A stretch of DNA of 32,562 bases, taken from NCBI GenBank assembly GCA_023396665.1, contig JAEWVL010000071.1, positions 1-32,562 of the forward strand, written 5' to 3'. The position numbers and the translations under genes are program-made. Positions 4,275-32,562 of this stretch are shown in pieces. The notes below the pieces were generated by a model that was not told where the DNA came from, did no database searches, and worked only from the letters and a program-made list of their open reading frames with translations. Each line of letters starts with the position of its first letter. The stretch's first letter is position 1. The DNA is from Spirochaetota bacterium. GTDB lineage: Bacteria > Spirochaetota > UBA4802 > JAFGJZ01.

Positions 4275-4494
4275 ACGGGGTCTGCGATGATGCCCGCTCC
4301 TGATGTCGGGTAAAAGCGCGGTGGAGAAGGGATCATTACGAAAGTTTATCCCCCCGCATCGCGCTGGACTTCGTTCTCTGAAGTTCTTGACGAATGTGCC
4401 GCTGTTGTGCAGCCTGCGGTGAACGGAAAAGTGAAAAAAGTAAATGACCCGATCATATATCTAATACCAAATGAAACAGTAAGGATGGAACACG

Positions 4495-14468: not shown

Positions 14469-14852
14469 TCATTTATGCAATTTGATAATCATCTGTACTG
14501 TGATATATCCGGCGAGTACCATGCCCAGTCCCAGCAAGTTGCTGGCAAGAAGGTTCAGTAGTGCCAGGCGAATTTCCCTTCCTTTCAGCAGATGAAAACT
14601 CTCGAGGCAAAATGTAGAAAAGGTGGTAAAGCCCCCCAGAAAACCGGTAAAGATGAACAATCGCAATTCCGGCGAAATAATCCACCTTTCAAAAAAAGCG
14701 GAAAGCAGACCGATCAGAAAACAACCCGTCAGATTGACCGCCAGTGTCCCGAAGGGAAAAAAATCCGGGCTTAGTGAGCAAACCCCCCTGGAAAGAAGGT
14801 AGCGCGCCAGACCGCCGGTACCGCTTCCGATAAGAATGCAGAGATATTTCAT
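14469..14852 (-). CDS. crcB: Fluoride ion channel CrcB/FluC
   Basis: 127 aa starting at MKYLCILIGSGTGGLARYL, with FPFGTLAVNLTGCFLIG and GFLGGFTTFSTF. This is the C-terminal part of the 296-aa ORF. A GGTGGTG RBS lies 8 nt upstream of the ATG (14850-14852). Confidence 0.9.
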   Translation of the reverse strand: MKYLCILIGSGTGGLARYLLSRGVCSLSPDFFPFGTLAVNLTGCFLIGLLSAFFERWIISPELRLFIFTGFLGGFTTFSTFCLESFHLLKGREIRLALLNLLASNLLGLGMVLAGYITVQMIIKLHK

Positions 14853-15015
14853 AATCACACCACCGGCATAAAATGTCGGAGCGTCAGCTCCTTGCTGCAT
14901 CACTGTTGAGTGCTGATCTGATTTTGTCCATAATTTCACGCAAAAAATGCAGATTACAGCTGTCTTTCGGTTTTCAGGATATGAGATTTCGCCGGTTTTA
15001 GGTAAAAATGTCTTA

Positions 15016-15549
15016 TTAATAGAAGAGAATCGCGAGATCAAGAATGACTGCGTCGAGCAGTTCCTTAATCTCCTCGTCATCGGGAAATGAGCGGGAAAGC
15101 TCCAGGCATTTCGTATACGCGATGAATATATCGCCGGTTTCACGATAAAGATTGATGATGTTGATGCGCGCTTCGATGAGATCGGGCTCGTATTCGAGTG
15201 CTTTGCGATACAGTTCGAGAGCTTCTTCAAGAAGATCTTTTTCCCAGCAGATAGAGGCTTTGTTCGCCAGAGTGACAGAATCATCGGGGTAGGCTTCGAG
15301 CGCACGGTCGATAATGTATTCGGCGTCTTCGATGTTTCCCATTTCAAAAAGGCAGACACCGAGACCGTTCATTGCTTCAGCCGATTCATTGTCGTATGAA
15401 AGAAGGGTGAGGAACATCTGCGCCGCGCCAACCCAGGCCTCATTGTCCATATTCTCATAGGCAAGGTCAAACAGATGGTCTATTTCTTTTTCAAGGTCTG
15501 AGATCCCGTTAATCACAAGAAGCTCATCAAGTCGTTTCTTTTGGATCAT
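15016..15549 (-). CDS. Tetratricopeptide (TPR) repeat protein
   Basis: 177 aa, acidic, with three to four TPR-like units (AAQMFLTLLSYDNESAEAMNGLGVCLFEMGNIEDAEYIIDRALEAYPD, LEEALELYRKALEYEPD). Confidence 0.8.
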   Translation of the reverse strand: MIQKKRLDELLVINGISDLEKEIDHLFDLAYENMDNEAWVGAAQMFLTLLSYDNESAEAMNGLGVCLFEMGNIEDAEYIIDRALEAYPDDSVTLANKASICWEKDLLEEALELYRKALEYEPDLIEARINIINLYRETGDIFIAYTKCLELSRSFPDDEEIKELLDAVILDLAILFY

Positions 15550-16270: not shown

Positions 16271-18616
16271 TTACTCGATTGAAATGCAAACCGCGGTGAT
16301 ATCATCCGGAATGTCTTCCAGTTCGCTTGATTCAACCAGCTGGCTGATTTTTTCGATGATCACCTCTCCGCTGCCGGCCGCGTTTTCTGAAAGAAGGGTG
16401 ATGATCGGTTTTTCGCCAAGACTGTGCCCCGATTCCATGCGTATATCCACGAGTCCATCGGTGTAGAGAAAGAGCTTGTCTCCCGGTTCAATCGTAATGC
16501 TGCTTTCCATGTACGAGGGCTCGTTCATGACGCCAAGTATGTGGTTTCGCTGATGCAGAGACTGCACCGTTCTGCTCGCGTTCACATAGTGAAGCGGAAG
16601 ATTGTGACCCGCGTTCACATAACGAAGCAAACGGGTGCGGGGGTCATAAACGGCGATCAGCAGGGTGATTAGTTCGTGTCCGCGGTATTTCTCGATCAGG
16701 AATCTGTTTATATATTCCATCACTTCGGTGATTTCCTCTTCTTCTTTCATCAGTGCGTTTACCAGTGCCGCCGTTGTCGAATGAAGCATGGCTGCCGGCA
16801 AACCGTGTCCGGTGATGTCGCCGATGACAATTGCACTCCTGTTATCCGGGAGGGAGACGATGTCAAAATAGTCTCCCGTTACCTTGTTAAAGGGGCGCAG
16901 ATAAAAGGAGATGTCGATCCCCGATGATAGCGGCAACTCAACCGGAAAAAGGCGCATTTGAATGTATGATGCGTTGTCGAGTTCTTCTTCGTATTTGCCT
17001 TTCAGAAGATATTGCTGAAATAACAGTTCGTTTTCAATCATCTGGTAGATCAAAAGCGCTGCCGATTGCAGATAATGAAATTCGGCGCTGTAAAAGGGGG
17101 CGGCCTTTGACTTGTCACTTGCGAAGATGACACAGGGAATTTTTGATTCAAATTCAACAGGAATAATGATCGTGAACTGATCGCTGTTTTTCCCCTCAAA
17201 ATAGTTCACTTCGTAATTTTCGAAAATATAGTCTTTTCTTATTATATCCCGGTAGGTCTCATATTGTTTTGCCAGCGGGCTGGAAGCGTCAATATAGAAG
17301 AAAAACCGTTCATAGCGGTCAAGACGTGTGGTCATCGAATGGGATATGATTCCGATTTTCAAATGGGCGATTTCAAGCATCAAAAGCATTTGATTGAAAA
17401 TGGATTCCAGCCGTTTTTCGAGCGGTTTGGGCAAGACCGATATTTCGGCAATTAACTGCAGCGAAAGCGTCAGTTTGTCACCGGTGAGACTGTATTTCCC
17501 CCGCATGCGCTCAAGAATCAATGAACGCAGTAGTAATATTACCGAGGCGCTTGTGATATAGAGAATTGAATTGTGAATTGTCGTCACTTTCGATGTCAGA
17601 ATGTAAAAAAACAAACCGAGCGCAAGCGATGATATGAAGTCGACAATGAAACGAATATTGTAGACTGTCCTGATGACATATTCTGTCAGATGGCTCCGTT
17701 CGATAAAGCCTCTTCCGAGAGTAAGGGGAATAATGCAGGTGAACAGTGTAATCACCGGTGCCGGCACCGGAAAGTCAAAAAAAGTCGTGATCAGAAGTGT
17801 CAGCGCGGGGATAATTATCCCCCCGACGCTTGCAACGATTACGGTGAAGCTTGAGCCGAACTGATGACGTCGTGTGTGGTTTTTGTAGATACCGAAACAG
17901 GCGGCAAACACAAAAAGAAAAAGAAAAGAAATAAGGTAGAATTTGAATGACAGATCACTGGTCAGCGAAAAAGAAGTGAAAAGATGCAGAAGTAAAACAG
18001 CGAGCATTGCACATAACAGAACGAGTGACAAGGCCCTCCTTTTATTCGCAGAAAGATTGAGCATTTCACCGGTAGCGGAAAGCGCGAAGTAATAAAACGC
18101 GGCATGTGTCAGCAGTAGCAATATAATATTTCCCGTACAAATTATATCAACATAAGAGAATAGTACGGATCCGAGTATTATTGAGAAATATGCGTAGTAT
18201 TTCGCCGATTTGTTGATCTTCTTGACGAAAAAAATCACTACACCCCACAAAAGGTGTACGGTTCCAGTTACAACGAGTATGGTAAGGTAGATGAAAAGAT
18301 CAATGTTAAATGATCTGGAGATGAAGTGGAGTACAGTCGAGCCGTCTTGCTTTATCAGGGGAACTGTCCATGAGCTTCTGGCCGGTGTTTTCAGATGAAC
18401 GTCATGAAGCAGGTGCAGCAGCGACTCGTCACTTATTTGCGCCTTATACAGCGTGTCATTGTTGCCGAATTTGATGGTATTGGTAAGCATGTTGCCGTTC
18501 AGAAGCCGCGAAAAAGGGTATCTGGTACACAGGGTATATGCATTGCTCAGCATTATAATATTGATGATGGCAATTGCGATAAACACCGTTATTCTTCGAA
18601 ACAGGTTAGATCTCAT
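16271..18616 (-). CDS. Multi-pass membrane PP2C-family (SpoIIE/RsbU-type) serine phosphatase with an intervening GAF-like region
   Basis: Signal anchor, a ~80-aa extracytoplasmic segment and about 9 TM helices. The C-terminal domain has GDYFD, IGDITGHGLPAAM, VNAGHN, LYTDGLVD and PDDITAV. The ATG at 18614-18616 is preferred to the TTG at 18640. Confidence 0.85.
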   Translation of the reverse strand: MRSNLFRRITVFIAIAIINIIMLSNAYTLCTRYPFSRLLNGNMLTNTIKFGNNDTLYKAQISDESLLHLLHDVHLKTPARSSWTVPLIKQDGSTVLHFISRSFNIDLFIYLTILVVTGTVHLLWGVVIFFVKKINKSAKYYAYFSIILGSVLFSYVDIICTGNIILLLLTHAAFYYFALSATGEMLNLSANKRRALSLVLLCAMLAVLLLHLFTSFSLTSDLSFKFYLISFLFLFVFAACFGIYKNHTRRHQFGSSFTVIVASVGGIIIPALTLLITTFFDFPVPAPVITLFTCIIPLTLGRGFIERSHLTEYVIRTVYNIRFIVDFISSLALGLFFYILTSKVTTIHNSILYITSASVILLLRSLILERMRGKYSLTGDKLTLSLQLIAEISVLPKPLEKRLESIFNQMLLMLEIAHLKIGIISHSMTTRLDRYERFFFYIDASSPLAKQYETYRDIIRKDYIFENYEVNYFEGKNSDQFTIIIPVEFESKIPCVIFASDKSKAAPFYSAEFHYLQSAALLIYQMIENELLFQQYLLKGKYEEELDNASYIQMRLFPVELPLSSGIDISFYLRPFNKVTGDYFDIVSLPDNRSAIVIGDITGHGLPAAMLHSTTAALVNALMKEEEEITEVMEYINRFLIEKYRGHELITLLIAVYDPRTRLLRYVNAGHNLPLHYVNASRTVQSLHQRNHILGVMNEPSYMESSITIEPGDKLFLYTDGLVDIRMESGHSLGEKPIITLLSENAAGSGEVIIEKISQLVESSELEDIPDDITAVCISIE

Positions 18617-19943
18617 GTTCTGGTACCGAAAACACCGCAATCATACTGCGGGAGATGTCAATGTTCTTTGTATCGAAAACATTTACGATAGTGTTGATGA
18701 TGTCAGATGATTGTGGTACGGCCGGCAACAGTGACTTTATCAGTTGCAGATGAGTAAAGAAATAATAAGAAATGTGACGGTTTACAAAGATAAACAGATC
18801 GCCCTTCAGCAGTGTAAATTCATCCGTTTCGATTCGGCTGAATTCAGCATTGCGGTAAAGCCAGGGAACCGGCATGTCTTTTCTGGAAATTTCGGCCTTT
18901 CCGCTGCTGTCAAATTCGACAGCGAATATATTCGGGCTGACGTCGAAAAAGCCGTGTGTCATTATGATCTCATTCGTCTTTCTCATCGACTCGCTGATGC
19001 AATACCCTTTCGATGAATAAAAACGCAGCAGTGATGAGATGACAGGGAGAAAAATCAGAGTCGACTTATTGGAGTTACCGGTCCAGTAAGCGGTAAAATA
19101 GAGCGCGTTATTCTGTTCGAAGAAGTCGATGAATCTGTCAGAGTAGATGGTTTCCGTGTTGTAATACAGTTCAGCCTGTATGAAATCATTGCGAAATGTA
19201 TTAGCCGGCAGAAAATCCTTCTGTACACGTTTTTCAAGGTGTTTCTCCCGCTCGAGTTCTTTTTTTCTGGCAAGCTCTTTCCACAGGAAAGAATTTATCG
19301 AAAGAGCGGCAAATTTCGTACCGAAAAGTTTCAGCGCGTTGATTTCATTAGAGGTATAGGGGGTGGATCTTTTGCCGAAAACGAGAGCACCCATAAGCAG
19401 ATTTGAGTAAAACATCGGAATGATGATTTCAGCACCAAGTCGTTCCATTTCATGTCTGATATTTATTTCGAAGTTATGCGCATTTGTCAGCCGGCTCTTT
19501 ATCAGCACATCGTCAGGAGTATTGAGAACTTTCAGCAGAATGTTGTTATAATTCAAAAAGCCTTCCTGCTCAAGCGCATTTTTCTTTTTTGCATAAAGAA
19601 TATATTCTTCGTTTATCTTGTCATAAAATATCAGGCTTCCCGTTTTTACAGACAGAATGGAAAGAATCCGGTTGAATTTCTTTTCGAAAAACTCGGTGAC
19701 CGATTCGAAAGACAGAACCGAGTCGATGGTGTCGAGAAATATCTCGGGGTTCAGTTTTCGGTGTTTCGAGAAGGCCAGCGTTGAAACGATAAAATCGTAA
19801 AACGGTATTGTCATAAGAAAGATGATTACGGCGAGTGCGAAAAAATAGACTTCGTCTATTCCGAGGTGTTGTGCGGGTACCAATATCGCGAGCACCAGCG
19901 AACTGTAGAAAAAAGCCATAAGGCCGATAAGCGGGTATATCAT
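18606..19943 (-). CDS. Membrane protein with a GAF-like domain and a degenerate SpoIIE/PP2C-like domain (predicted pseudo-phosphatase)
   Basis: 445 aa. Two to three N-terminal TM helices, a GAF-like middle (LGAEIIIPMFYSNLLMGALVFGKR) and a coiled-coil linker. The PP2C-like region has SDRFIDFF, YWTGNSN and FIFVNRH where the paralog has GDYFD, GDITGHG and LYTDGL. ATGA overlap with tmk. Confidence 0.6.
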   Translation of the reverse strand: MIYPLIGLMAFFYSSLVLAILVPAQHLGIDEVYFFALAVIIFLMTIPFYDFIVSTLAFSKHRKLNPEIFLDTIDSVLSFESVTEFFEKKFNRILSILSVKTGSLIFYDKINEEYILYAKKKNALEQEGFLNYNNILLKVLNTPDDVLIKSRLTNAHNFEINIRHEMERLGAEIIIPMFYSNLLMGALVFGKRSTPYTSNEINALKLFGTKFAALSINSFLWKELARKKELEREKHLEKRVQKDFLPANTFRNDFIQAELYYNTETIYSDRFIDFFEQNNALYFTAYWTGNSNKSTLIFLPVISSLLRFYSSKGYCISESMRKTNEIIMTHGFFDVSPNIFAVEFDSSGKAEISRKDMPVPWLYRNAEFSRIETDEFTLLKGDLFIFVNRHISYYFFTHLQLIKSLLPAVPQSSDIINTIVNVFDTKNIDISRSMIAVFSVPEHEI

Positions 19944-22101: not shown

Positions 22102-23484
22102 ATGTATCAGACAAAGAAACTGGGTTTCGTCTCGTCATTTTCGGTTGCTGTCGGACTTGTTGTCGCGTCAAGCACGCTGGTGACACTGGGACAGGGGATG
22201 GGAGCCGCAGGCGGAGGATTCATTTTCGCTATGGTTGCGGCGTGGCTTCTGCAATATTTTTCCGCGCAGAGTTTTGCCGAACTGACAACGGCAATGCCCA
22301 AGTCAGGAAGTATTAATGTGTATGCCCGTATGGCCATGGGCCCGGCAGCAGGTATTCTGTGTGTGCTTGCAGGATATGTCTACATGAGTTTTCTGACAGT
22401 TCCGGCCGAGTTGAGTGTAGCCGGTGCGGTTTTTAATGAGGTATTCGCCGCTGATTTCTCGCCGGCGCTGTTTGCTCTCATTCTTCTGGTGTTGTTCACT
22501 TTAGCCAACTTGCTCGGTGTTGATATTTTCGCCAAACTTCAGATAGTATTGACTGTGGCGATGATAGTATCCATGAGCGCTCTCGGTATAGTCGGGCTTC
22601 TCAACATCGGCAATACGGCGCCCTCGCTTCCATCCATGTCTTTCAATCCGATGGGTATTGGCGTGTTAAGCATGACCGCGCTCGCGATCTGGCTATACAT
22701 AGGAATAGAATTCGTCTGTCCCATGGTCGAGGAGATCAACAAGCCGGAACGCAATATTCCCTGGGCCATGTTCAGCGGATTGATAGTCATTTTCTTTGTG
22801 AATATTCTCTACGGCTTTGCCTCGATCAAGTATGTTCCGGCTGAATCGCTCGCTTCTTCGGATACTCCGCACATTCTTGCGGCGCAGGCGATTCTCGGCG
22901 GTGGCGGAAAAATCTGGATAGGTATCGTATCCATTCTTGCAACCGCAAGTTCGGTTAACACCTTTGTCGCTGTTATTCCCCGCATGCTTTACAGCATGGC
23001 CAAGGAAGGCGAAGCTCCAAAACTGTTCGCCGTGATTCACCCGAAATTCCGCACACCGTGGGTCGGTATCGTTCTGGTTTCTCTTGTGTACGGACTGCTT
23101 CTTTTCATGGGCATAGCGGGAATAGAAAAAATCATGATTCTCATAATGTCTGCAGCAGCATGCTGGCTACTTGTGTACATGATGGCTCATATAATCGTGA
23201 TAATCATGCGCTTCAAGTACCCGTCTCTCAAGCGTCCCTACAAGTCCAGACTGTATCCATTTCCGCAGATCGCCGGTAGTCTAGGAATTGTATATGCAAT
23301 ATGGGAAATCTGGCCGGATATGATAACCAGGATGGAAATATACAAATATGCGTTAGTGGCGATTGTGATCTGTGTCATTTACGCCCTTGTGTGGACAAAG
23401 TTCGTCATGAAAAGAAAAGCTTTCACTCCCGTCTCGCTGGAAGAGGAGATGGGCGCCGAGTTTGTGCGTTCTTCGATGGAATAG
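22102..23484 (+). CDS. APC-superfamily amino acid/amine permease
   Basis: About 12 TM helices. The N-terminal KKLGFVSSFSVAVGLVVASSTL and overall layout are typical of APC permeases. The ATG at 22102 is preceded by GGGGAGG. The TTG at 22069 is rejected. Confidence 0.88.
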   Translation: MYQTKKLGFVSSFSVAVGLVVASSTLVTLGQGMGAAGGGFIFAMVAAWLLQYFSAQSFAELTTAMPKSGSINVYARMAMGPAAGILCVLAGYVYMSFLTVPAELSVAGAVFNEVFAADFSPALFALILLVLFTLANLLGVDIFAKLQIVLTVAMIVSMSALGIVGLLNIGNTAPSLPSMSFNPMGIGVLSMTALAIWLYIGIEFVCPMVEEINKPERNIPWAMFSGLIVIFFVNILYGFASIKYVPAESLASSDTPHILAAQAILGGGGKIWIGIVSILATASSVNTFVAVIPRMLYSMAKEGEAPKLFAVIHPKFRTPWVGIVLVSLVYGLLLFMGIAGIEKIMILIMSAAACWLLVYMMAHIIVIIMRFKYPSLKRPYKSRLYPFPQIAGSLGIVYAIWEIWPDMITRMEIYKYALVAIVICVIYALVWTKFVMKRKAFTPVSLEEEMGAEFVRSSME

Positions 23485-23533
23485 TATGAATACTGACTGT
23501 CGGGATGCTGAATAAAAAGTACCGGAGGGGAAA

Positions 23534-24118
23534 ATGAAAACAAAAGCCGCGCTTGCCGCCGAAAGATATTTAGCCACTGTTGCGGATATGTTCATGCCGT
23601 TTTTAGGAAGAGCTAGCTGTGAAAACGGATGCACGTGTTTTTGTTTCCCCTCCATCGCAATAGACAGGGCCGAGTTATGTCAGAGAAAAAGGTCCCACCT
23701 TTTTGGAGGGTTCATAGGTCTGGAAGTGGTCGGCACAGTGAATACAGGTGTGAGTTTTCCGGAATCGAAAATGTCAATTTTGTATAAAGGCATGATGGTC
23801 AAGGGAGATGCTTATTTCAGAGTTATAGATGGTAATAAGAGCGCAATGCATGATGAATTGAACGCTAACAGTGATCTCATCAAAACGCTCTCAGAACTTG
23901 ATCTTGAACACGGTGAAGTGATCGTTTCAGAATCAGAAGTAAAAGTTTCCCTGGCTCCGCTTGGATCAACATACACGTATATGACTTTTCCACCAATGCA
24001 GCATGCCGGTTATTTCAACAAAAATGAAGCCGCTTTGTTGAGCAGAGCTCTTGATTTGATCGGGAAAACTGTTGTGAAAATGCCTGCGAGAAGCGGCACA
24101 AGGGAAGGCGTAAAATGA
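23534..24118 (+). CDS. Hypothetical protein with a Cys-rich N-terminal segment
   Basis: 194 aa. GGAGGGG RBS and ATGA overlap with the next gene support that it is translated. Contains SCENGCTCFCFPS. No family recognised. Confidence 0.5.
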   Translation: MKTKAALAAERYLATVADMFMPFLGRASCENGCTCFCFPSIAIDRAELCQRKRSHLFGGFIGLEVVGTVNTGVSFPESKMSILYKGMMVKGDAYFRVIDGNKSAMHDELNANSDLIKTLSELDLEHGEVIVSESEVKVSLAPLGSTYTYMTFPPMQHAGYFNKNEAALLSRALDLIGKTVVKMPARSGTREGVK

Positions 24119-25182
24119 TGAATAAACAGGTAATAATAATTTCAACACTGACAATACTGACTGCCGCATGCGTGGCTATGGCATCAGTAGTCATTTCAAA
24201 TTCGGAAAACAAAACTAATCCCGCTCTTCCGAAAGTCGCAATTCAGGAAGTAGATTTTGATGCGGAACAGATGCAATTACTTGGAGAAATTGTTGAGGGT
24301 GAACAGCGAACAATTGCTGCCGCCTTATCCGGATCAGTTATAGCGGTATTCTCCAAATCATTTGAAGAGCTTGTGAGATTCAAAACACCTCACGAGACGG
24401 AAATCACCGCATTGTGCGCCTCGGGTAATGAGGGGATATTAATCAGTGCAGATAAAGGCGGTTCCGTGTGTGTGTGGGATCTCGCAAAGAAACGTGTTGT
24501 TATGTTGAATTCTGTTCACAAGAGCGAGATCAGTGACATTAAAATAAGCGAAGACGGAACAAAATTCGCCACAGCAAGCCGTGATCGCACTGTAATTGTC
24601 AGGGATACAAGTTCACTCGAAGCAAAATTCGTACTGAAAGGTCACAGCAGTTACGTATCGGGAATAGATTTTTCCCCTGACGGATCAAAACTGGCATCTG
24701 TAGGCCTTGATAACAAACTTGTGATTTGGAACTGCGAAAACGGATTAAAGATAAAAGAGCGCAGCAACAGTCACTATCGAGCGGTTAACAGTGTGCGTTT
24801 CAGCAAAGACGGAAAACAGCTGATTACGTCAAGCGCTGACAAGATGATCAAGGTTTGGAACGCGGAAAATCTTGAACCGATTCATTCGATTAAAGGTCAT
24901 GTGAACGAGGTTCTTGCGATATCGTATAACGTTAGTGGAACCTTGATGTTTTCTGCCGGCAGGGACGGGTTTCTGTATGTGTATGACGCCTCCAGCGGAG
25001 AGCGTATGGGGAATGTAGAGCTGAAAAACAATGTGTATTCGTCAGGTATTCTGTCTGATCCCGATTTTGATCTCGTGTATGTTGCCGACAGATCAGGCGA
25101 TATAACCTGTATCGACGCGGCCGCGATGAATGTTCGCTATACTGCCACATTGGATTCCGTTAATGCGATTAGCTTTTTATAA
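24115..25182 (+). CDS. Membrane-anchored or secreted WD40-repeat beta-propeller protein
   Basis: 355 aa. N-terminal hydrophobic anchor (VIIISTLTILTAACVAMASVV), then repeated WD40 ends: SVCVWDL, TVIVRD, KLVIWN, MIKVWN, FLYVYD. Confidence 0.85.
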   Translation: MMNKQVIIISTLTILTAACVAMASVVISNSENKTNPALPKVAIQEVDFDAEQMQLLGEIVEGEQRTIAAALSGSVIAVFSKSFEELVRFKTPHETEITALCASGNEGILISADKGGSVCVWDLAKKRVVMLNSVHKSEISDIKISEDGTKFATASRDRTVIVRDTSSLEAKFVLKGHSSYVSGIDFSPDGSKLASVGLDNKLVIWNCENGLKIKERSNSHYRAVNSVRFSKDGKQLITSSADKMIKVWNAENLEPIHSIKGHVNEVLAISYNVSGTLMFSAGRDGFLYVYDASSGERMGNVELKNNVYSSGILSDPDFDLVYVADRSGDITCIDAAAMNVRYTATLDSVNAISFL

Positions 25183-25202
25183 TAACGGTACTGGAGCGAG
25201 TC

Positions 25203-25907
25203 ATGCTTTTAACATTTGAAAAACTGCCGTCTGAAAAACAAAATTCGATTCTTGAAGCCGCTGCAAGTGTATTCGCTGAGGAAGGCTTTCATTACGCGCG
25301 CATATCAAAAATATGCGAAAAGGCTTCGATTTCAAACGGTGCATTATATAAATATTTTACCGGTAAAGAGACTCTTTTTGTCGCTGTCATAGAATATGCG
25401 GCGGATCTTGTGAAAAAACATCTGTATCAGAAATTCTTTTCCGGGGAAAGACACCTTTTTGACTCACTCGCTCATCTTCTTGAGGAGATGGTTCTGTTCA
25501 ATAACGGAAACAATAATTACATATCGATCTATTCTGATCTCGGATCATCTTCGATGAACCGCTTTGCGCGAATCGCATCATCCAAATTCAAAAACGCAAC
25601 CAGTCAGTACACTATTCGCATGGTTGAGAGCGCAATTTCGAAGGGAGAAATACGGGCCGACATGTCGAGCGACAAAGCCGCATGCCTTATCGACAGCTAT
25701 ATCACGCTATTCTCCTTTACCCTTGTAAGTGAATACCACAGCAACCGTTTTGATTCTTTTTTTACCGGTAGTGACAACTCGCTTACAGAGCAGCAGAGAA
25801 TCAGGCTGGTCATTGATTCACTCAAAGAAGCACTGGCAAAATCTTCTTCGTGCGGAGAGCGACTGATCGCTTTCCGGGATACTAATTCATGTGAAGAGGC
25901 GATCTGA
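25203..25907 (+). CDS. TetR/AcrR-family transcriptional regulator
   Basis: 234 aa. N-terminal HTH: ILEAAASVFAEEGFHYARISKICEKASISNGALYKYFTGKETLF. Confidence 0.85.
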   Translation: MLLTFEKLPSEKQNSILEAAASVFAEEGFHYARISKICEKASISNGALYKYFTGKETLFVAVIEYAADLVKKHLYQKFFSGERHLFDSLAHLLEEMVLFNNGNNNYISIYSDLGSSSMNRFARIASSKFKNATSQYTIRMVESAISKGEIRADMSSDKAACLIDSYITLFSFTLVSEYHSNRFDSFFTGSDNSLTEQQRIRLVIDSLKEALAKSSSCGERLIAFRDTNSCEEAI

Positions 25908-26651
25908 ATGAAAATACTCGAGTTCATACACGATGAAGATCATCCAGAGACAAGCAATATGGACGCATGGGTTGAATCCAGGTTTTTTCATCTTACACAA
26001 AAGATCCGCGTGTACCGGAACGGACTGTCTTTTGTCGGTGAAGATTATGACATGATAATTCTGTACGGGGGGGCCCAGCATCTGTGGGATGAGAACAGGG
26101 AGGCCTGGCTTTCTGAGGAGATAGATTTTGTCAGAGATGCGATTTTTAATAAGAGAAAAGCAGTTATCGGCTTTTGTCTGGGCAGTCAGATTATCGCTGA
26201 GGCTCTCGGAGCGAAGGTTTACAAAATGGAGAAAGGCGAAATCGGGTGGTTCGGTATTAATGTAAAACATGATCACCCCCTGGTTCGGGATCTTGGAGAT
26301 CGTTTCGAAAGTTTTTTGTGGCATACTGATCATTATGATCTTCCCGGAGGATGTGTCTCCCTGGCGTCGACCGGACTGGCAGAGCATCAGATATATGCCA
26401 GTGAAGAGTATCCGGTTTGTGCGTATCAATTTCATCCGGAATATACGAAAACAATTATACAACATTATTTTGAAACCGGTTTTGATGAATACTGGGCTAA
26501 TGAAGCGTTTAATTCAAGTAAAGACGATTTCTCCGCAGATCTTGCGATCCGCCCGCAGACCTACGGGCTGTTTTCAAGACTGATGGACAATGCAATGGAA
26601 TATTTAGCGGCTAAATACAAAATATCAAATGAAAGTGAGGTACAGTTATGA
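25908..26651 (+). CDS. Class I (triad) glutamine amidotransferase-like protein, possibly a gamma-glutamyl-amide hydrolase
   Basis: 247 aa. Nucleophile elbow GFCLGSQ and a His-Glu pair in YQFHPEY. Starts immediately after the TetR stop. Its stop overlaps the next ATG (ATGA). Confidence 0.78.
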   Translation: MKILEFIHDEDHPETSNMDAWVESRFFHLTQKIRVYRNGLSFVGEDYDMIILYGGAQHLWDENREAWLSEEIDFVRDAIFNKRKAVIGFCLGSQIIAEALGAKVYKMEKGEIGWFGINVKHDHPLVRDLGDRFESFLWHTDHYDLPGGCVSLASTGLAEHQIYASEEYPVCAYQFHPEYTKTIIQHYFETGFDEYWANEAFNSSKDDFSADLAIRPQTYGLFSRLMDNAMEYLAAKYKISNESEVQL

Positions 26652-28039
26652 CATCAGCAGGTTTGTCAACGGCACCCAAAGAGGCGTTATCCGGTTACCG
26701 TAAGATGACGCAGGAAGATGTGAAAAACATAATTCGCGAGAAGGGTATCGAAATGATACGTCTGGAATATGTTGATATGAACGGAATTAACAGGGGCAAA
26801 TTATTGCCGGCCAAAATGCTTGATGAAGCTCTGGATGGCGGAATCGCCTTCGCGGCGGCAATTATGGCAATAAGCTATGATAACAATGTCGCCCAGGTAA
26901 AAGGGCTCAGTGAGTACAATTATGATGACATGAAAGTTGTCGCCGATCCCTCAACCTTTGTCGTGTTACCCTATCTGGAAAAAACAGCGCTGTTGCTCGG
27001 CGATCTGCATTATCATCACAAGCCGATGCTGCAATCGCCGCGCTGGTTTCTCAAAAAGATGATAGAGCAGTACAATGATCTTGGCGTAAATCCGATTACC
27101 GCGAGTGAACTCGAGTTCTTTCTGTTCAACAAGACCTCTGAAGGCGGATTCGTTCCCTATACAAGCAAAAATTGCAACTGCTATACCAGCAACACCCGTA
27201 TAGATCCCAAGGGATTTCTCAACAAACTGACGAGAATATTCACCGAAATGGATTTCAAGGTTCTGTACATGAACCATGAATTTTATCCGGGACAGTATGA
27301 ATATAACTGGATGCATGGTCCGGCCCTGAGAAATGCGGATGAAACTTCTATGTTCAAGGGAATATGCAAGGATGTGGCTGATATCAATGACATGCTGGCT
27401 ACGTTCATGGCCAAACCGCTCAATGGAGGCGGTGGAAGCGGATGTCACTTTCATGTATCTATGTCTGATCTCGAAAGCGGAGAGAATGTGTTTTACGATC
27501 CCGCAGACGATAACGGGATGTCCGGGATGATGAAGTACTTTGTCGGCGGTGTCCTCAAACATGCGAAATCTCTGGTCGCCTTTTTGTCCCCGACTATCAA
27601 CTGTTACCGCCGTTACCGTCCTGATTCTTTTGCACCCTATTATATCGGTTGGGGTTACGACAACCGCACAACATACATACGCATTCCCGATGAGCGGCAT
27701 GCGGCGACACGGGTCGAAGTGCGCGCGGCGAGTGCGGCGACAAATCCTTATCTGGCGCTTGGCGGAATTCTGGCCGCAGGTCTCGATGGTATTAAAAATA
27801 AAATTACACCGTCGGAAATAGTCACAACAGATCTGTATCATGACGAGGGAAAACAGCGGGAAACGGTTCCGAGAAGTCTGTTCCGGTCTCTATCTGAGCT
27901 TGAGAAGGATGAGTGGATGTGCGAAATGGCAGGACAGGATCTGATAAACAATTTCGTCGCCCTGAAAAATCTCGAAGTTGAGGGATTCAACACGAGTGTG
28001 ACAGACTGGGAATGGAATACCTATTCGTATCATGTCTGA
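26648..28039 (+). CDS. Glutamine synthetase family ligase (type I fold; glnA-like or gamma-glutamyl-amine synthetase such as GmaS/PuuA)
   Basis: 463 aa. Contains SELEFFLF, NHEFYPGQYEYN, GGGSGCHFHVS, NCYRRYRP and RVEVRAASAATNPYLA, the GS catalytic motifs. Confidence 0.88.
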   Translation: MTSAGLSTAPKEALSGYRKMTQEDVKNIIREKGIEMIRLEYVDMNGINRGKLLPAKMLDEALDGGIAFAAAIMAISYDNNVAQVKGLSEYNYDDMKVVADPSTFVVLPYLEKTALLLGDLHYHHKPMLQSPRWFLKKMIEQYNDLGVNPITASELEFFLFNKTSEGGFVPYTSKNCNCYTSNTRIDPKGFLNKLTRIFTEMDFKVLYMNHEFYPGQYEYNWMHGPALRNADETSMFKGICKDVADINDMLATFMAKPLNGGGGSGCHFHVSMSDLESGENVFYDPADDNGMSGMMKYFVGGVLKHAKSLVAFLSPTINCYRRYRPDSFAPYYIGWGYDNRTTYIRIPDERHAATRVEVRAASAATNPYLALGGILAAGLDGIKNKITPSEIVTTDLYHDEGKQRETVPRSLFRSLSELEKDEWMCEMAGQDLINNFVALKNLEVEGFNTSVTDWEWNTYSYHV

Positions 28040-28071
28040 AAAGAATTAGATCCAATGCACAGGAGGAAAAC

Positions 28072-28968
28072 ATGTGCGGTATAGCCGGTATTATTAATAA
28101 AGAGGGAATGGATGTTTCCACCAAACTGGTGGATATGCTGAAACTCATTCAGCATCGGGGTCCCGATGCGACGGGTATAGCGGTTTACGGAGCCGGTGAA
28201 TCAATTACAATGCGTGTCGCGATTACAGACAAGGACAGGCATATTGAACTGATGAACATAGTGGCCGAGTACGCGAGAATCGCCGGAGAAAGCACATCAG
28301 ACTGGAGACGCAATATTGTATTCGCTGATTTTGTTCTCGAAATGGAGCAGACCGATATCCCCCGTTTGCATGAGCGGATCAACAGTGTTGACGGCCTTTG
28401 TGTACACTACGTCGGCAGAGGGATGCGCTTATTCAAGGATGCTGGTTCGACAACAGAGCTGGTTGAAAAGCATCGTATCGGATCCATTACCGCGACTCAT
28501 GGAATGGGTCACGTGCGTATGGCAACGGAAAGCGCTGAAGACATCAACGCTGCGCATCCCTTTGTTTCTCCGTTTTATCCTGAACTGAGTGTTGTGCACA
28601 ACGGACAGTTTACAAACTATTTCAATTTGCGAAGATCGCTTGAGCGCAGAGGTGCTATCTTTAAAACACTAAACGATTCTGAAGCGGCAAGTCATCTGAT
28701 AGCCTGGGCAATGAAAGAAAACGGCGGAGATCTGAAGGCTGCTCTCCTGTACGCACTTGAGGAGATGGACGGTATTTTCTGCATCATCGCTGCGACATCA
28801 AAGCAAATGGGATTCGTGAAAGACAGAATGGGAATAAAACCCTTTCTGCTATTTGAAAAAGACAACATGACGTTTTTCGGATCGGAGCAAATCGAATTTA
28901 CCACAGTCTTTCCGGATGTATACGCCGAAGAGATGGAACCGGGAGAGGTGCGGGTATGGAATATATAG
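28072..28968 (+). CDS. Class II (Ntn) glutamine amidotransferase, glutamate synthase domain-1-like (MgsA-like)
   Basis: The ATG at 28072 after an AGGAGG RBS gives MCGIAGI (catalytic Cys1). HGMGHVRMAT and VVHNGQFTNY motifs are present. Confidence 0.85.
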   Translation: MCGIAGIINKEGMDVSTKLVDMLKLIQHRGPDATGIAVYGAGESITMRVAITDKDRHIELMNIVAEYARIAGESTSDWRRNIVFADFVLEMEQTDIPRLHERINSVDGLCVHYVGRGMRLFKDAGSTTELVEKHRIGSITATHGMGHVRMATESAEDINAAHPFVSPFYPELSVVHNGQFTNYFNLRRSLERRGAIFKTLNDSEAASHLIAWAMKENGGDLKAALLYALEEMDGIFCIIAATSKQMGFVKDRMGIKPFLLFEKDNMTFFGSEQIEFTTVFPDVYAEEMEPGEVRVWNI

Positions 28969-29675
28969 ATGCCGCTAACATGAAAAGCGGAGAACTTAAT
29001 CCGATCATTACTAAAATTCTGGATTGGGACTCTGAGGTGCACATCAAAAACCCTCATTCTATGCACAATATCGCGATCGGAATCAGGAAGAAGGGCCGGA
29101 TTGTCATTGATGGAAGTACGGGCTTTTATACCGGCGGTTTTCTTGAAGGAGCCACTGTTGTTGTCGAGGGAAACACCGGATGGTATGCGGGTGACAACAT
29201 GATGGATGGTGAGCTGATAATTAAAAAGAATGCGGGATGCAATGCTGGCGCCTATTTCTACGGAGGAACCATGGTTATTCGCGGAGGCACAGGGAGCCGG
29301 GTGGGATACGGCATGAAAGGTGGAACCATAATAGTGTGCGGTTCAGCCGGCAGGTGGGCCGGGCAGATGACACTGGGTGGAAAACTTGTCATTCTGGGTG
29401 ATCCCGGGAAACAGCTGGGCGAGTCGATGTACCGGGGGGCGATATTCGTGCGCGATGATGAAGTTGAATCCAGACTGGGGGGCAATGTGTTTGTTGATTC
29501 TCCGACAGCGCAGGAGATCAGCGAACTGAACGCGATGTTCACGTTGTACGATATTGATGCAGACGGTGCCCGGCTTCGTGCTGTGCGCCCCATGACAACG
29601 GGTCGGCACAATTATGTGCTGTTTAAGCCGGAACTGCGTCCTGAACTTTCAAACAGGAATGGTCTGACATTATGA
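28956..29675 (+). CDS. GXGXG-motif protein, glutamate synthase C-terminal-domain-like (MgsB-like)
   Basis: 239 aa of repeated beta-helix G-x-G motifs (VVVEGNTGWYAGDNMMDGELIIKKNAGCNAG, GGTMVIRGGTGSRVGYGMKGGTIIVCGSAG). Overlaps the upstream gene by 13 nt. Confidence 0.85.
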   Translation: MEYIDAANMKSGELNPIITKILDWDSEVHIKNPHSMHNIAIGIRKKGRIVIDGSTGFYTGGFLEGATVVVEGNTGWYAGDNMMDGELIIKKNAGCNAGAYFYGGTMVIRGGTGSRVGYGMKGGTIIVCGSAGRWAGQMTLGGKLVILGDPGKQLGESMYRGAIFVRDDEVESRLGGNVFVDSPTAQEISELNAMFTLYDIDADGARLRAVRPMTTGRHNYVLFKPELRPELSNRNGLTL

Positions 29676-30976
29676 AAGATAACGAGATAAGAGAAAAAGA
29701 ATTCTCTCCGAAAGACGAGCAGCGCGGAGTTTGGAACCAGCAAACCGTTTCGGAGATAGAATACAAGGCCCGCTACGGCAAACACCGTATTCGCGGGTGC
29801 GGTGCAACGCGTTATATGCCGAATTTCGACGATCTGATGGTTCTTCCCTCACAGTTGACGCGTATGTCAATAGATACCTACCGCGAACCCTGTGAGACCA
29901 GAACCGTTCTGGGCAAGCGTTTTGCGACAAAGCCATTGGTAATTGAAACTCCGATCATGATCGCCGGTATGTCCTATGGGGCGCTCAGCAAAGAATCAAA
30001 AATTGCACTGGCGAAAGCGACAGCGTTGACAGGGACGGTAATCAGTAACGGCGAGGGCGGACTTCTGCCCGAAGAAAGAGAGCACTCCTATCGTCAGTCT
30101 GTGCAGATTCTTCCCAGCCGTTTCGGTTTCAGCCGCAGAAGCATGGATGTGGCTGACATGCTGGAATTTCTTGTCGGTATCGGGGCCAAGCCCGGACTGT
30201 CGGGGCATCTGATGGGCGAGAAAATCACAGAGGAGATTGCCGCTTTCAGGCAGTTGCCCGTGGGAATAGATCTGCACAGTCATCCCCGTCATGGTGACGC
30301 CTTCGGTGCCGATGACATGGTCGTTAAGATGGAGCAGATCCGTGAACTGACGAAGGGTGAGATTCCCATTTTCGCGAAAATCGCCGCGGGCAGAGTAAGG
30401 GACGATGTGAAGATAGCCGTGAAGGTTGGTGCTGACGGCATCATCATCGATGGCGCTCAGGGGGGGACCGGAGCGGCTCCGGTGATGGCGACCGATCATC
30501 TCGGTATTCCGGCGATGCCCGCTCTTGTGCAGGCCGTGGCGACGCTTGAAGAGATGGGACTGAAGGATGATGTCAGCATCATCATATCCGGCGGTATAAA
30601 AGACGGAGCCGACATGGCCAAAGCCCTTGCTCTCGGAGCCGACGCGGTTGCAATCGGTACCGGTGCGATGATCGCAATGGGCTGCAGAGTCTGTCTTCGC
30701 TGTCACAGCGGAAACTGTGCATTCGGCATAGGCACTCAGCGTGAGGATCTGCGCGTGAAACTCGACATAGAAGAAGCCGCACAACGTGTTGCGAACTATA
30801 TCACCGCGATGACGAACGAAGCAATACTGCTGGCCAAGGCGGCGGGAAAGACTAAACTGAAAAATCTTGAACGAGAGGATCTAAGGTCGATGACACTGGA
30901 AAGCTGCGCGATGACCGGTATACCTCTGGTCGGAAGTGATTTTGTTTTTGGAAAACGATTCGGGTTCGGAGCGTGA
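29672..30976 (+). CDS. FMN-dependent glutamate synthase domain-2-like subunit (MgsC-like)
   Basis: 434 aa. Contains IAGMSYGALS, GEGG, KPGLSGHL, IIIDGAQGGTGAAP and ISGGIKDGADMAKALALGADAV, plus the Cys cluster CRVCLRCHSGNC. ATGA overlap upstream. Confidence 0.9.
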   Translation: MKDNEIREKEFSPKDEQRGVWNQQTVSEIEYKARYGKHRIRGCGATRYMPNFDDLMVLPSQLTRMSIDTYREPCETRTVLGKRFATKPLVIETPIMIAGMSYGALSKESKIALAKATALTGTVISNGEGGLLPEEREHSYRQSVQILPSRFGFSRRSMDVADMLEFLVGIGAKPGLSGHLMGEKITEEIAAFRQLPVGIDLHSHPRHGDAFGADDMVVKMEQIRELTKGEIPIFAKIAAGRVRDDVKIAVKVGADGIIIDGAQGGTGAAPVMATDHLGIPAMPALVQAVATLEEMGLKDDVSIIISGGIKDGADMAKALALGADAVAIGTGAMIAMGCRVCLRCHSGNCAFGIGTQREDLRVKLDIEEAAQRVANYITAMTNEAILLAKAAGKTKLKNLEREDLRSMTLESCAMTGIPLVGSDFVFGKRFGFGA

Positions 30977-30988
30977 GGAGGAAAGCTG

Positions 30989-31312
30989 ATGAGAATAGAA
31001 ACCCATCCGATATTGGAGAAATTTGAAAAGGGGCCGAAGGTGAGTTTTGAGTATGACGGAAGAATTCTCGAAGGATACGAGGGTGAGCCCATAGCGGTTG
31101 CCCTGCGTGCCAACGGTGTAATGACCCATCGTTATACGTCAAAGCGCCATGAGCCCAGAGGAGTTTTCTGTGCAATCGGTCGCTGTACGGACTGTGTGAT
31201 GATTGTCGATGGAAAACCCAACGTACGAACCTGTGTGACCGGTTTGAAAGCCGGCATGAAAGTGCAGACACAACATGGTGTATCAGCAAAACCGAACGGA
31301 GACGGGCTATGA
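30989..31312 (+). CDS. Small (2Fe-2S)-binding protein, HcnA / sarcosine-oxidase-alpha N-terminal type
   Basis: 107 aa. GEPIAVALRANGV and CAIGRCTDC...VRTC (C-x4-C-x2-C-x11-C). Confidence 0.75.
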   Translation: MRIETHPILEKFEKGPKVSFEYDGRILEGYEGEPIAVALRANGVMTHRYTSKRHEPRGVFCAIGRCTDCVMIVDGKPNVRTCVTGLKAGMKVQTQHGVSAKPNGDGL

Positions 31313-32562
31313 AAAGATATGACTTGATTGTGATCGGTGCCGGACCCGCCGGCCTTTCAGCAGCCATCGAGGCTGCGCAGGCGGAAATGAAGGTTGTTGT
31401 GTATGACGAGAATTCCCGGCCGGGCGGTCAGCTGTTCAAACAGATTCACAAGTTTTTCGGATCGAAAGAGCATCGCGCCAAAGAAAGGGGTTTCCGAATA
31501 GGAGAGAGACTGCTCGCTGAAGCCCGCGCACTTGGTGTTGAAGTTTCACTCGATACAACCGTGACAGGAATTTTTGAAAACAGGGAAGTCACCTTCATGA
31601 AAGACTCACGTATCGGGCATGTGAAGGCAGCTTCTATTATTATAGCGACCGGCGCATCGGAGAACATGCTGCCTTTCCAAGGCTGGACTTTGCCGGGTGT
31701 AATCGGCGCCGGTGCCGCACAGACCATGATGAATCTTCATGGTGTCAAACCGGGTAATCGTGTGCTGATGGTCGGCTCAGGAAATGTTGGTCTTGTTGTC
31801 GGCTACCAGATCATGCAGGCAGGATGCACGCTTGTTGCGGTGGTTGATGCCGCTCCGACTGTAGGGGGATACGGTGTTCACGCATCAAAAATTGCCCGCA
31901 CCGGTCTTCCCTTTTACATGTCGCACACCGTCAGGGAAGCGCATGGAACAGATAAAGTTGAAGGTGCGACAATCGTTGAGGTTGATAAGAACTGGCAGCA
32001 GATAGCCGGAAGCGAAAAACATTTGGATGTGGATACCATCTGCATCGCCGTTGGTCTTTCACCGATGTCCCAGCTTGCGGCAATGGCCGGATGTGCTATG
32101 GAGGAAAATCCTTTGAAAGGCGGTCTCGTTCCCGTATGCGGAAGTTGCGGCGAGACTTCGGTGGAGGGGATCTATGTTGCCGGAGATGTCGCCGGTATCG
32201 AGGAAGCGAGCTCGGCCATGATTCAGGGAAAAATTGCCGGAGCCGCGGCTGCGAGAGCCATGGAATGCATGAGTGACAATGAATTCGAACTGAGGCGGGA
32301 ACAGTATGCGCAATCGCTGAGCCGGCTTCGTGAGGGAATGTTCGCGCACAAGAATCGCGGAAAACCCAAAATCGAAACGGACGAAGGTCTTCCTCTGTCA
32401 CAGAGTCTTTTGACGAAGGGCTATGTCGCTGATATTGAATTATCCCATTTTCCGGGAATACCCGCAGCCGAAAAACGCGCATCGGGTCTTGTTCCGGTCA
32501 TCGAGTGCATGCAGAATATTCCCTGTGATCCCTGTCAGGATGCCTGTAAAAAAGGCTGTATC
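31309..32562 (+). CDS. FAD/NAD(P)-binding pyridine-nucleotide-disulfide-type oxidoreductase (HcnB / opine oxidase A / proline dehydrogenase alpha-like), 3' end outside the window
   Basis: Not in the ORF track because no stop is reached. The ATG at 31309 (ATGA overlap) opens a 418-codon frame to the window end. It has DLIVIGAGPAGLSAA, LMVGSGNVGLVVG and YVAGDVAG, plus a terminal Cys cluster CDPCQDACKKGC. Confidence 0.82.
   Translation, partial: MKRYDLIVIGAGPAGLSAAIEAAQAEMKVVVYDENSRPGGQLFKQIHKFFGSKEHRAKERGFRIGERLLAEARALGVEVSLDTTVTGIFENREVTFMKDSRIGHVKAASIIIATGASENMLPFQGWTLPGVIGAGAAQTMMNLHGVKPGNRVLMVGSGNVGLVVGYQIMQAGCTLVAVVDAAPTVGGYGVHASKIARTGLPFYMSHTVREAHGTDKVEGATIVEVDKNWQQIAGSEKHLDVDTICIAVGLSPMSQLAAMAGCAMEENPLKGGLVPVCGSCGETSVEGIYVAGDVAGIEEASSAMIQGKIAGAAAARAMECMSDNEFELRREQYAQSLSRLREGMFAHKNRGKPKIETDEGLPLSQSLLTKGYVADIELSHFPGIPAAEKRASGLVPVIECMQNIPCDPCQDACKKGCI

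Follow-up and report, generated by a model that had tools for sequence, protein, structure and literature searches.

A gene cluster of a Spirochaetota bacterium is most likely an undescribed relative of the N-methylglutamate pathway

The N-methylglutamate pathway for methylamine runs in three stages, catalyzed by the ligase GmaS, N-methylglutamate synthase (MgsABC) and N-methylglutamate dehydrogenase (MgdABCD), and its genes lie side by side in the same direction, as on pCC283b_2 of Rhizobium leguminosarum (L089; L numbers denote the loci compared). To our knowledge, all descriptions of such a route to date come from aerobic methylotrophs and marine Proteobacteria. For the synthase, a transfer of the methylamide group to 2-oxoglutarate in the manner of glutamate synthase (GOGAT, GltS) has been proposed, with the redox cofactor left unidentified (PMC6237917). 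Three further types of pathway, PuuABCD, the aniline TdnQ/TdnT type (pTB30, L094) and a haloarchaeal polyamine pathway (L090), pair a glutamine synthetase (GS)-like ligase that has no ammonium site with a class I amidotransferase; they modify and then hydrolyze the gamma-glutamyl-amine and have no GltS-like enzyme. Here we analyzed a 32,562-nucleotide stretch of DNA from a Spirochaetota bacterium (contig JAEWVL010000071.1 of assembly GCA_023396665.1, positions 1 to 32,562; called the window below), in which a cluster at positions 22102-32562 combines a GS-like ligase, three GltS-like subunits and the beginning of an iron-sulfur flavoprotein. The cluster is most likely a hitherto undescribed relative of the N-methylglutamate pathway, with which it shares the three-stage logic, the enzyme superfamilies and the arrangement of adjacent, codirectional genes. 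What is new is the dehydrogenase module, the GOGAT-type Fe-S site of the second enzyme, RidA as a fixed member, the anaerobic hosts and, in some lineages, a link to microcompartments; a search of the open-access literature found no description of this operon. We consider it reasonably probable that the cluster encodes an inducible pathway in which a primary amine is converted to an aldehyde and its nitrogen to glutamate or ammonia.

The cluster consists of eleven genes on the + strand with minimal intergenic space, as seen in the open reading frame (ORF) listing and in Pfam and NCBIfam scans of the window, which bears out an earlier account made from the letters of the window (the preliminary description) both in the tight, codirectional packing and in the sizes of the three GltS-like subunits. 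Six of the genes encode the enzymes of the putative pathway: a GS-like protein, predicted to be a gamma-glutamyl-amine ligase (463 amino acids [aa], 26648-28039, +; Pfam Gln-synt_C, 1e-96); an Ntn (class II) amidotransferase subunit resembling MgsA and the corresponding GltS domain (298 aa, 28072-28968, +; GATase_6 and GATase_7); a GXGXG subunit resembling MgsB and the C-terminal domain of GltS (239 aa, 28956-29675, +; GXGXG, 2.1e-17); a flavin mononucleotide (FMN) subunit resembling MgsC and GltS (434 aa, 29672-30976, +; Glu_synthase, 4.6e-100); a 2Fe-2S subunit (107 aa, 30989-31312, +; Fer2_4, 2.4e-29); and a FAD/NAD-type subunit (31309->32562, +; Pyr_redox_2, 1.7e-37), which the window end cuts after 418 of about 530 aa. 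Across the cluster there are four 4-nucleotide overlaps of the ATGA type (24115/24118, 26648/26651, 29672/29675 and 31309/31312), and of the remaining junctions one is a 13-nucleotide overlap, one pair abuts, and the others are gaps no longer than 50 nucleotides.

The GS-like protein keeps all eleven ligands of metal, ATP and glutamate (E129, E131, E212, E220, H269, H271, R321, R339, R344, E357 and R359), which suggests that it is an active ATP-dependent gamma-glutamyl ligase. The ammonium site, by whose residues the preliminary description had proposed to judge the enzyme, is lost: the FDG of the Asp50' loop has become FAA and the loop carries an 11-residue insertion, Ser53 is replaced by Gln, Tyr179 by Cys and the flap Glu327 by Phe. 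Every canonical GlnA in the alignment retains the Asp, Ser, Tyr and Glu, including the GlnA encoded beside the Methanobrevibacter split GOGAT. In a neighbor-joining tree (like all our trees built with few reference sequences) the GS-like ligases, namely PuuA, Rhizobium GmaS, the aniline-type ligase, haloarchaeal ligases and the clade of the window ligase, form one group that is split from GlnA with 100% bootstrap. The protein was thus placed outside GlnA, where a position among the true glutamine synthetases had been named as the outcome that would speak for plain ammonium assimilation. Hence, by residues and tree, we predict that the enzyme is a gamma-glutamyl-amine ligase and no glutamine synthetase.

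The ligase is not a GmaS either, although the preliminary description had likened it to one. According to the structure of GmaS, Ala48' and Trp300 set this enzyme apart from GS (PMC7948447), and both the window ligase (Ala and Phe) and Rhizobium GmaS (Ala48' and Trp300) have lost Asp50' and the flap glutamate. Asp177 of GmaS has been proposed as the base that deprotonates methylamine (PMC7948447); this position, Asp in Rhizobium GmaS only, is Asn209 in the window ligase and Asn throughout the wider clade (44 sequences). With 313 bits the ligase stays below the cut-off of the type III/GmaS model TIGR03105 (470), just as it does not reach those of the GlnA model TIGR00653 (315 bits; cut-off, 429) and the gamma-glutamylputrescine synthetase model NF045547 (309 bits; cut-off, 650). 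In the tree, GmaS, for which a single sequence was sampled, is not its sister and branches outside a group of the window clade, PuuA and a haloarchaeal ligase, at nodes of 42 to 68%.

The three GltS-like subunits stand next to the ligase gene and have sizes similar to those of their Rhizobium counterparts (298, 239 and 434 aa versus 302, 228 and 442 aa), and to this extent the likeness to MgsABC that the preliminary description noted is real. The Ntn subunit begins with MCGIAG, with Cys1 as the nucleophile. The Ntn, GXGXG and FMN subunits are 31, 38 and 43% identical to Rhizobium MgsABC and 34, 41 and 50% identical to the split GOGAT of Methanobrevibacter; in a second comparison, the FMN subunit was 44% identical to MgsC and 49% to the archaeal subunit. 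The likeness ends at the iron-sulfur site. The FMN subunit contains a C-x5-C-x4-C motif, GCRVCLRCHSGNC, which aligns with the 3Fe-4S ligands of E. coli GltB (GCKYLRICHLNNC) and Methanobrevibacter (GCKVCQSCSEGIC). This triad is kept, and an MgsC-type insertion is absent, in the window protein and all its relatives, whereas in MgsC of Rhizobium, Acinetobacter and Paracoccus the three cysteines are gone and 16 to 25 residues are inserted at the Fe-S site. In a neighbor-joining tree of the FMN subunits, canonical MgsC and the window-type clade each form a monophyletic group with 100% support, and the two join at 85% against one archaeal and one E. coli GOGAT sequence only. The choice between MgsC and archaeal GltB, as the preliminary description had framed it, thus falls between its two poles: on this thin outgroup sampling, the window protein appears as a sister to MgsC and outside the MgsC clade. 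These data suggest that the three GltS-like subunits form a sister family of canonical MgsABC and are not members of it.

A separate observation concerns canonical MgsC itself. The plasmid-encoded MgsC of Burkholderia sp. FXe9 (L099, 7013-8374), which belongs to a canonical glnT-glxBCD-amt cluster, has the insertion and keeps the three Fe-S cysteines; judging by these sequences, some canonical N-methylglutamate synthases may have an Fe-S cluster and others not.

The split glutamate synthase of Methanobrevibacter (L074, 10007-15838) resembles the window system in consisting of three separate proteins with an intact 3Fe-4S triad, encoded directly after a GS-family gene. Unlike the window ligase, its partner is a canonical GlnA with Asp50', Ser53, Tyr179 and Glu327, and the locus has no secondary-amine dehydrogenase and no RidA. 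Its FMN subunit also carries an N-terminal 2x[4Fe-4S] ferredoxin domain, and an additional ORF of 357 aa is located between the genes for the GXGXG and FMN subunits.

The last two genes of the window, described earlier as encoding a 2Fe-2S protein and a FAD oxidoreductase, are present as such but had not been recognized as the start of a third pathway enzyme. The Fer2_4 protein is the counterpart of the SoxA N terminus and of HcnA and is syntenic in the relatives. The Pyr_redox_2 protein matches the N-terminal part of SoxA (NCBIfam soxA, model region 170-486, 137 bits) and has 1Y56_A among its top solved-structure matches; at the last residues of the window begins its C-terminal 2x[4Fe-4S] domain, which is a separate Fer4 gene in L097 and the Desulfobacterales. 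As an exact look-up of the Fer2_4 protein returned only two short contigs, which stop at the same place or earlier, the contig could not be lengthened and the downstream genes were taken from L003 and other relatives. In L003, a Joint Genome Institute metagenome contig with a ligase 82% identical to that of the window, the Pyr_redox_2 homologue has a full length of 529 aa and is followed by genes for a SO_alpha_A3/Fer2_BFD protein (113 aa), a DAO-family protein (373 aa), a glutamate dehydrogenase, which occurs in this locus only, and RidA. Hence, the cluster as bounded by the window in the preliminary description is incomplete. The same BFD-DAO-RidA continuation is found in Desulfoscipio gibsoniae, Halanaerobium hydrogeniformans, Fusibacter paucivorans, Intestinibacillus and a Desulfobacterota-like contig.

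The best solved structure for the relatives' DAO subunit is the beta subunit of Pyrococcus PDH1 (1Y56_B, 156 bits), followed by the beta subunit of sarcosine oxidase (SoxB, 138 bits). Sarcosine oxidase, SoxA and PDH1 relatives all oxidize secondary amines. We take the subunit composition to be comparable to that of OoxAB, HcnABC and LhpBEF, and the alignments are consistent with a dehydrogenase of the HcnABC/opine-oxidase/PDH1 type. Like PDH1 of Pyrococcus and Thermococcus (PDB 1Y56), OoxAB, HcnABC and D-hydroxyproline dehydrogenase, the complex combines a DAO protein, a Pyr_redox_2 protein and small 2Fe-2S proteins; unlike PDH1, OoxAB and HcnABC, it is always tied to a gamma-glutamyl ligase and a GltS-like enzyme, and its Pyr_redox_2 subunit has the additional 2x[4Fe-4S] domain, which is encoded by a gene of its own in the Desulfobacterota. 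It also differs from the canonical SoxBDAG-type N-methylglutamate dehydrogenase with its folate-binding SoxA: here the modules of the SoxA N terminus are separate small proteins, and none of the annotated loci of relatives contains a GCV_T folate-binding domain, SoxD or SoxG.

Synteny was assessed by scanning species-representative genomes, by a tblastn matrix and by clustering of ORFs. The order GS-like ligase, MgsA-, MgsB- and MgsC-like subunits, Fer2_4 and Pyr_redox_2 is kept in about 30 independent genomes and is therefore more than chance, and about 30 of 32 loci contain the three GltS-like genes. A core of nine genes, which comprises these six and those for the BFD, DAO and RidA proteins, is syntenic in about 30 genomes of Bacillota, Desulfobacterota and Chloroflexota: it occurs in about 20 Bacillota (ligase identity, 55 to 82%), and most of it in metagenome-assembled genomes (MAGs) of Desulfobacterales, Desulfovibrio and Chloroflexota (40 to 48%); carriers include Desulfoscipio gibsoniae, Halanaerobium hydrogeniformans, Fusibacter paucivorans, Syntrophomonas and Intestinibacillus. 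The PheA protein of the window shares no more than 65% identity with named proteins, those of Spirochaetota and Deltaproteobacteria MAGs, and the host lineage is therefore poorly represented. Because PheA is closest to these MAGs and the cluster is closest to that of Bacillota, a comparison of the sequences suggests that the cluster has spread laterally among anaerobes. It is not a mobile element, as the rest of the window contains housekeeping genes of the chromosome, among them that for thymidylate kinase and a shikimate and phenylalanine operon.

Loci of more distant relatives give clues to the chemistry. In a Desulfovibrio MAG (L034, 14689-19966), the GltS-like genes are followed by genes for a bacterial microcompartment (BMC) shell protein, an Octopine_DH-family protein (1e-33), an aldehyde dehydrogenase, a second shell protein and a PduS-like Fe-S flavoprotein. 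Opine dehydrogenases are nonhomologous enzymes that oxidize N-(carboxyalkyl) secondary amines. Since an enzyme of this family stands in for the DAO complex in L034, the product of the GltS-like enzyme would be an N-substituted glutamate. In five Desulfobacterales loci, genes for shell proteins, EutN, a PduS-like and an EutJ-like protein come directly after the Pyr_redox_2 gene, and a Liv-type ABC transporter is encoded upstream. Another locus, L030 (1966-8688), has genes for the ligase, Fer2_4, Pyr_redox_2, a DAO::ferredoxin fusion and an aldehyde:ferredoxin oxidoreductase and no GltS-like genes; it may represent a shorter variant that oxidizes the gamma-glutamyl-amine directly. Microcompartments, coenzyme A (CoA)-type aldehyde dehydrogenases and tungsten aldehyde oxidoreductases all handle aldehydes, and the presence of microcompartment, aldehyde dehydrogenase and aldehyde:ferredoxin oxidoreductase genes in the relatives thus supports an aldehyde as the end product. 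A gamma-glutamyl-amide intermediate is supported by the occurrence, as accessories, of two unrelated enzymes that would cleave it: the class I amidotransferase of the window (see below) and GGACT, a member of the gamma-glutamylamine cyclotransferase family whose gene follows that for RidA in two genera, Fusibacter and Intestinibacillus.

The microcompartment genes deserve a remark of their own. BMC-H/T, EutN, PduS-like and EutJ-like genes lie downstream of that for Pyr_redox_2 in L024, L025, L028, L031 and L035. These loci were viewed up to a 10-kb flank, and their gene sets are partial in this view. Such enzymes and such a compartment type go unmentioned in the main text of the 2021 BMC catalogue, and the Desulfobacterota loci may represent a type of microcompartment so far uncatalogued.

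From these data we propose the following pathway. The amine would be imported by the APC permease, possibly with the help of the DUF3156 protein and the membrane-anchored WD40 protein, and then be linked to glutamate by the GS-like ligase at the expense of ATP, yielding a gamma-glutamyl-amide. The GltS/Mgs-like enzyme would cleave the amide at its Ntn amidotransferase subunit, and its FMN/3Fe-4S subunit would attach the amine to C2 of either 2-oxoglutarate or glutamate; the product would be an opine-like secondary amine, namely an N-substituted glutamate. We hypothesize that the Fer2_4, Pyr_redox_2-ferredoxin, BFD-like and DAO proteins form a four-subunit iron-sulfur flavoprotein that oxidizes this secondary amine to an imine, whose hydrolysis, assisted by RidA, would release glutamate and the aldehyde. 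The TetR protein would act as a local regulator and the class I amidotransferase as an accessory hydrolase of the gamma-glutamyl-amide. The preliminary description had considered a catabolic pathway like that of N-methylglutamate. This general view is strengthened by the lost ammonium site, the position outside GlnA and the continuation with a dehydrogenase and RidA; an identity with GmaS and MgsABC, which it had drawn on, does not hold.

A more tentative extension, to which we give a limited chance of being right, is that the enzymes form a redox-neutral, ATP-driven and pyridoxal phosphate-independent "transaminase" metabolon, housed in a microcompartment in the Desulfobacterota, with the net reaction amine + 2-oxoglutarate + ATP -> aldehyde + glutamate. 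Electrons from the DAO subunit would pass via BFD, Fer2_4 and the 4Fe-4S domain of Pyr_redox_2 to the 3Fe-4S/FMN site of the GltS-like subunit, where they would drive a GOGAT-like reductive transfer of the amine onto 2-oxoglutarate. In the Desulfobacterota, the octopine-type dehydrogenase and the PduS-like protein could do the redox cycling inside this putative new type of microcompartment. If this loop exists, the long-missing electron donor of enzymes of the N-methylglutamate synthase type would be identified.

Several points weigh against the pathway that we propose. Directly observed are the gene content, the synteny, the lost ammonium site, the Fe-S ligands that were kept and the family placements; we infer the reaction at each step, the release of an aldehyde and the nature of the amine from sequence and gene context. 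The ligase is below every curated cut-off, and in the tree the deep nodes that would define its nearest functional relatives have 42 to 68% support; the tree of the FMN subunits has just two GOGAT sequences, one archaeal and one bacterial. For the DAO, BFD and RidA genes, which lie outside the window, we rely on L003, whose ligase is 82% identical. The Bacillota clusters of the window type have no aldehyde-handling gene, and the aldehyde product therefore rests on distant relatives (ligase identity, 41 to 48%). Moreover, RidA usually acts on free 2-imino acids, and an amino acid as the substrate would fit its presence as well.

What else could the cluster do? One alternative, which we regard as unlikely, is the true N-methylglutamate pathway for methylamine, with a divergent GmaS, an N-methylglutamate synthase and a formaldehyde-releasing N-methylglutamate dehydrogenase. 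The order of enzyme functions is indeed the same as in the clusters of Rhizobium, Paracoccus and Burkholderia, the replacements of Tyr179 by Cys and of Asp50' by Ala are those of GmaS, the FMN subunit is sister to MgsC (85%), and GmaS enzymes accept several small amines (PMC7948447). However, the base Asp177 of GmaS is Asn across the clade, the ligase fails the TIGR03105 cut-off and is not sister to GmaS, and the dehydrogenase comes without the GCV_T folate domain, SoxD and SoxG that would capture formaldehyde. In addition, the CoA-type aldehyde dehydrogenase, microcompartments and aldehyde:ferredoxin oxidoreductase of the relatives serve aldehydes of C2 and longer. Methylamine is a possible substrate, disfavored because of the missing folate domain, the Asn at the Asp177 position and this machinery for longer aldehydes.

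Improbable, in our view, is a Puu-like pathway in which the DAO complex oxidizes the gamma-glutamyl-amine as PuuB does, the class I amidotransferase releases the product as PuuD does, and the GltS-like enzyme works separately. The overlap of the genes for the ligase and the amidotransferase in the window, the pairing of a GS-like gene with a type 1 amidotransferase gene in the haloarchaeal and aniline-type clusters, and L030, in which Fer2_4, Pyr_redox_2, DAO and aldehyde oxidoreductase follow the ligase in the absence of Mgs genes, all point in this direction. The preliminary description had seen in the ligase-amidotransferase pair the hallmark of PuuA and PuuD, a comparison that breaks down on two counts: the amidotransferase is unrelated to PuuD (BLASTP E = 1.3), and it is missing from most of the related loci, being encoded in about 8 of 37, which makes it an accessory and not a core member, whereas the GltS-like genes are nearly constant. 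The NF045547 score of the ligase (309 bits; cut-off, 650) and the lack of a PuuC-like aldehyde dehydrogenase in the window-type clusters also disagree with such a pathway.

We see a similarly small chance that the pathway starts from an amino acid or from a preformed secondary amine, such as an opine or N-alkyl amino acid. In this case the DAO complex would come first and release an amine or ammonia and electrons, from which the ligase and the GOGAT-like enzyme would make glutamate. RidA and the DAO-family, PDH1, opine-oxidase and HcnABC relatives do act on amino or imino acids, the FMN subunit retains the Fe-S ligands of GOGAT, and the transporters, APC or, in the Desulfobacterales, Liv-type ABC, are of amino-acid types. 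By its residues, however, the ligase would be unable to bind ammonium in the normal way; GGACT and the amidotransferase indicate gamma-glutamyl-amides of organic amines, and the aldehyde-handling genes of the relatives are left without an explanation.

That a glutamine synthetase and a split glutamate synthase of the archaeal type simply assimilate ammonium here, the competing reading of the preliminary description, is highly improbable: raw similarity (GSI-alpha enzymes as the top solved structures, with 246 bits, and subunits slightly closer to Methanobrevibacter [34, 41 and 50%] than to Rhizobium MgsABC [31, 38 and 43%]) and the retained 3Fe-4S motif speak for it, but we rejected it on the trees, with their 100% split from GlnA, and on the active-site residues, as the Asp50' loop, Ser53, Tyr179 and Glu327, which every canonical GlnA compared keeps, are all replaced, the more so because the ligase scores below the TIGR00653 cut-off and no role would be left for the secondary-amine dehydrogenase, RidA, the permease, GGACT and the TetR protein.

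Anoxic sediments, digesters and guts are rich in amines, such as methylamine, ethylamine, ethanolamine, polyamines and those derived from lysine. If the pathway of amine activation, transfer and oxidation proposed here is correct, it would provide Syntrophomonas, Desulfoscipio, Halanaerobium, Fusibacter, Intestinibacillus and Desulfobacterales with an ATP-dependent, oxygen-independent means of capturing amine nitrogen and carbon. A GltS-like family that has the Fe-S site of GOGAT and is always encoded beside an Fe-S flavoprotein would also be a good system for addressing the question of the redox cofactor of N-methylglutamate synthase (PMC6237917). As the hosts D. gibsoniae, H. hydrogeniformans and F. 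paucivorans have been cultured, the predictions are directly testable.

The five genes upstream of the ligase gene presumably serve transport, regulation and accessory functions. The first encodes an APC-family permease (460 aa, 22102-23484, +; AA_permease_2, 2.7e-42; alternative TTG start at 22069). It met no NCBIfam equivalog cut-off, the top specific model being that for ethanolamine permease (108 bits versus 382). The permease, whose gene adjoins the core in 23 related loci, is a probable importer of the amine substrate. The second gene product (194 aa, 23534-24118, +) belongs to the DUF3156 family; its own match to PF11354 is below threshold (17.7 bits), and its homologues in L003, L005 and L097 are annotated with PF11354. 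The label of a Cys-rich protein that it had been given is misleading: the N-terminal cysteines are not conserved among the relatives, and we rejected Cys-richness as a functional feature. A paper on DUF3156 proposes a fold like that of type III secretion system chaperones and an antitoxin role in Pseudomonas, which leaves the role in this cluster unexplained. The third gene encodes a WD40 beta-propeller protein (355 aa, 24115-25182, +; WD40, 2.8e-39) with a hydrophobic N-terminal segment, a signal or an anchor; its family is conserved in L003, L005, L006, L008, L009 and L097. The DUF3156 and WD40 proteins accompany the permease as a triad, even in the distant L097, where the triad is located downstream.

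The regulator and the amidotransferase are less widespread. The TetR-family protein (234 aa, 25203-25907, +; TetR_N, 2.2e-13) was found in eight related loci only. The class I glutamine-amidotransferase-like protein (247 aa, 25908-26651, +; GATase, 8.2e-19) has an intact Cys-His-Glu signature, with a GFCLGSQ nucleophile elbow and an FHPE motif. It is 25% identical (E = 5e-12) to the amidotransferase encoded next to the aniline-type GS-like gene of pTB30 and showed no similarity to E. coli PuuD, which belongs to Peptidase_C26, in the BLASTP comparison mentioned above; it is a probable accessory gamma-glutamyl-amide hydrolase.

A different architecture is seen in Bacillota loci that have no DUF3156, WD40 and TetR genes. 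There, a family of about 496 aa is always encoded upstream of the permease (L016, 6355-7905, and homologues in L010, L011, L013, L014, L017-L020, L087 and L098). It has no Pfam domain apart from a weak N-terminal HTH_19 match and is probably the regulator of this architecture.

Matches to promoter and terminator consensus sequences were at the level of shuffled sequence (17 versus 15.0 and 12 versus 11.1), and therefore no operon boundaries were drawn from them. Neither the window nor five related loci gave a riboswitch or other Rfam match at gathering scores, and the window contains no tandem repeats.

Elsewhere in the window, an aromatic amino-acid operon (508-5556, +) encodes DAHP synthase, 3-dehydroquinate synthase, type I dehydroquinase, a fused shikimate dehydrogenase-shikimate kinase (428 aa) and a chorismate mutase-prephenate dehydratase. 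A 1,028-aa protein (8603-11689, +) has a long polytopic membrane region as its N-terminal half and a VIT domain, and its C terminus, PEPGSLLLLLFAVCVFIGETIRRQKKRK, resembles a PEP-CTERM (exosortase) sorting signal; the hydrophobic codons of this protein account for the T-rich skew at 9001-10000 (AT skew, -0.35). On the opposite strand (16271-19943, -), two reading frames overlap: one encodes a 789-aa protein whose C-terminal part is a SpoIIE/PP2C phosphatase domain, and the other, of 445 aa, is without a Pfam match. Finally, a 296-aa ORF (14469-15359, -) contains a CrcB fluoride-channel domain that is confined to residues 173-285, and either its start codon was called too early or the protein has an unusual N-terminal extension.

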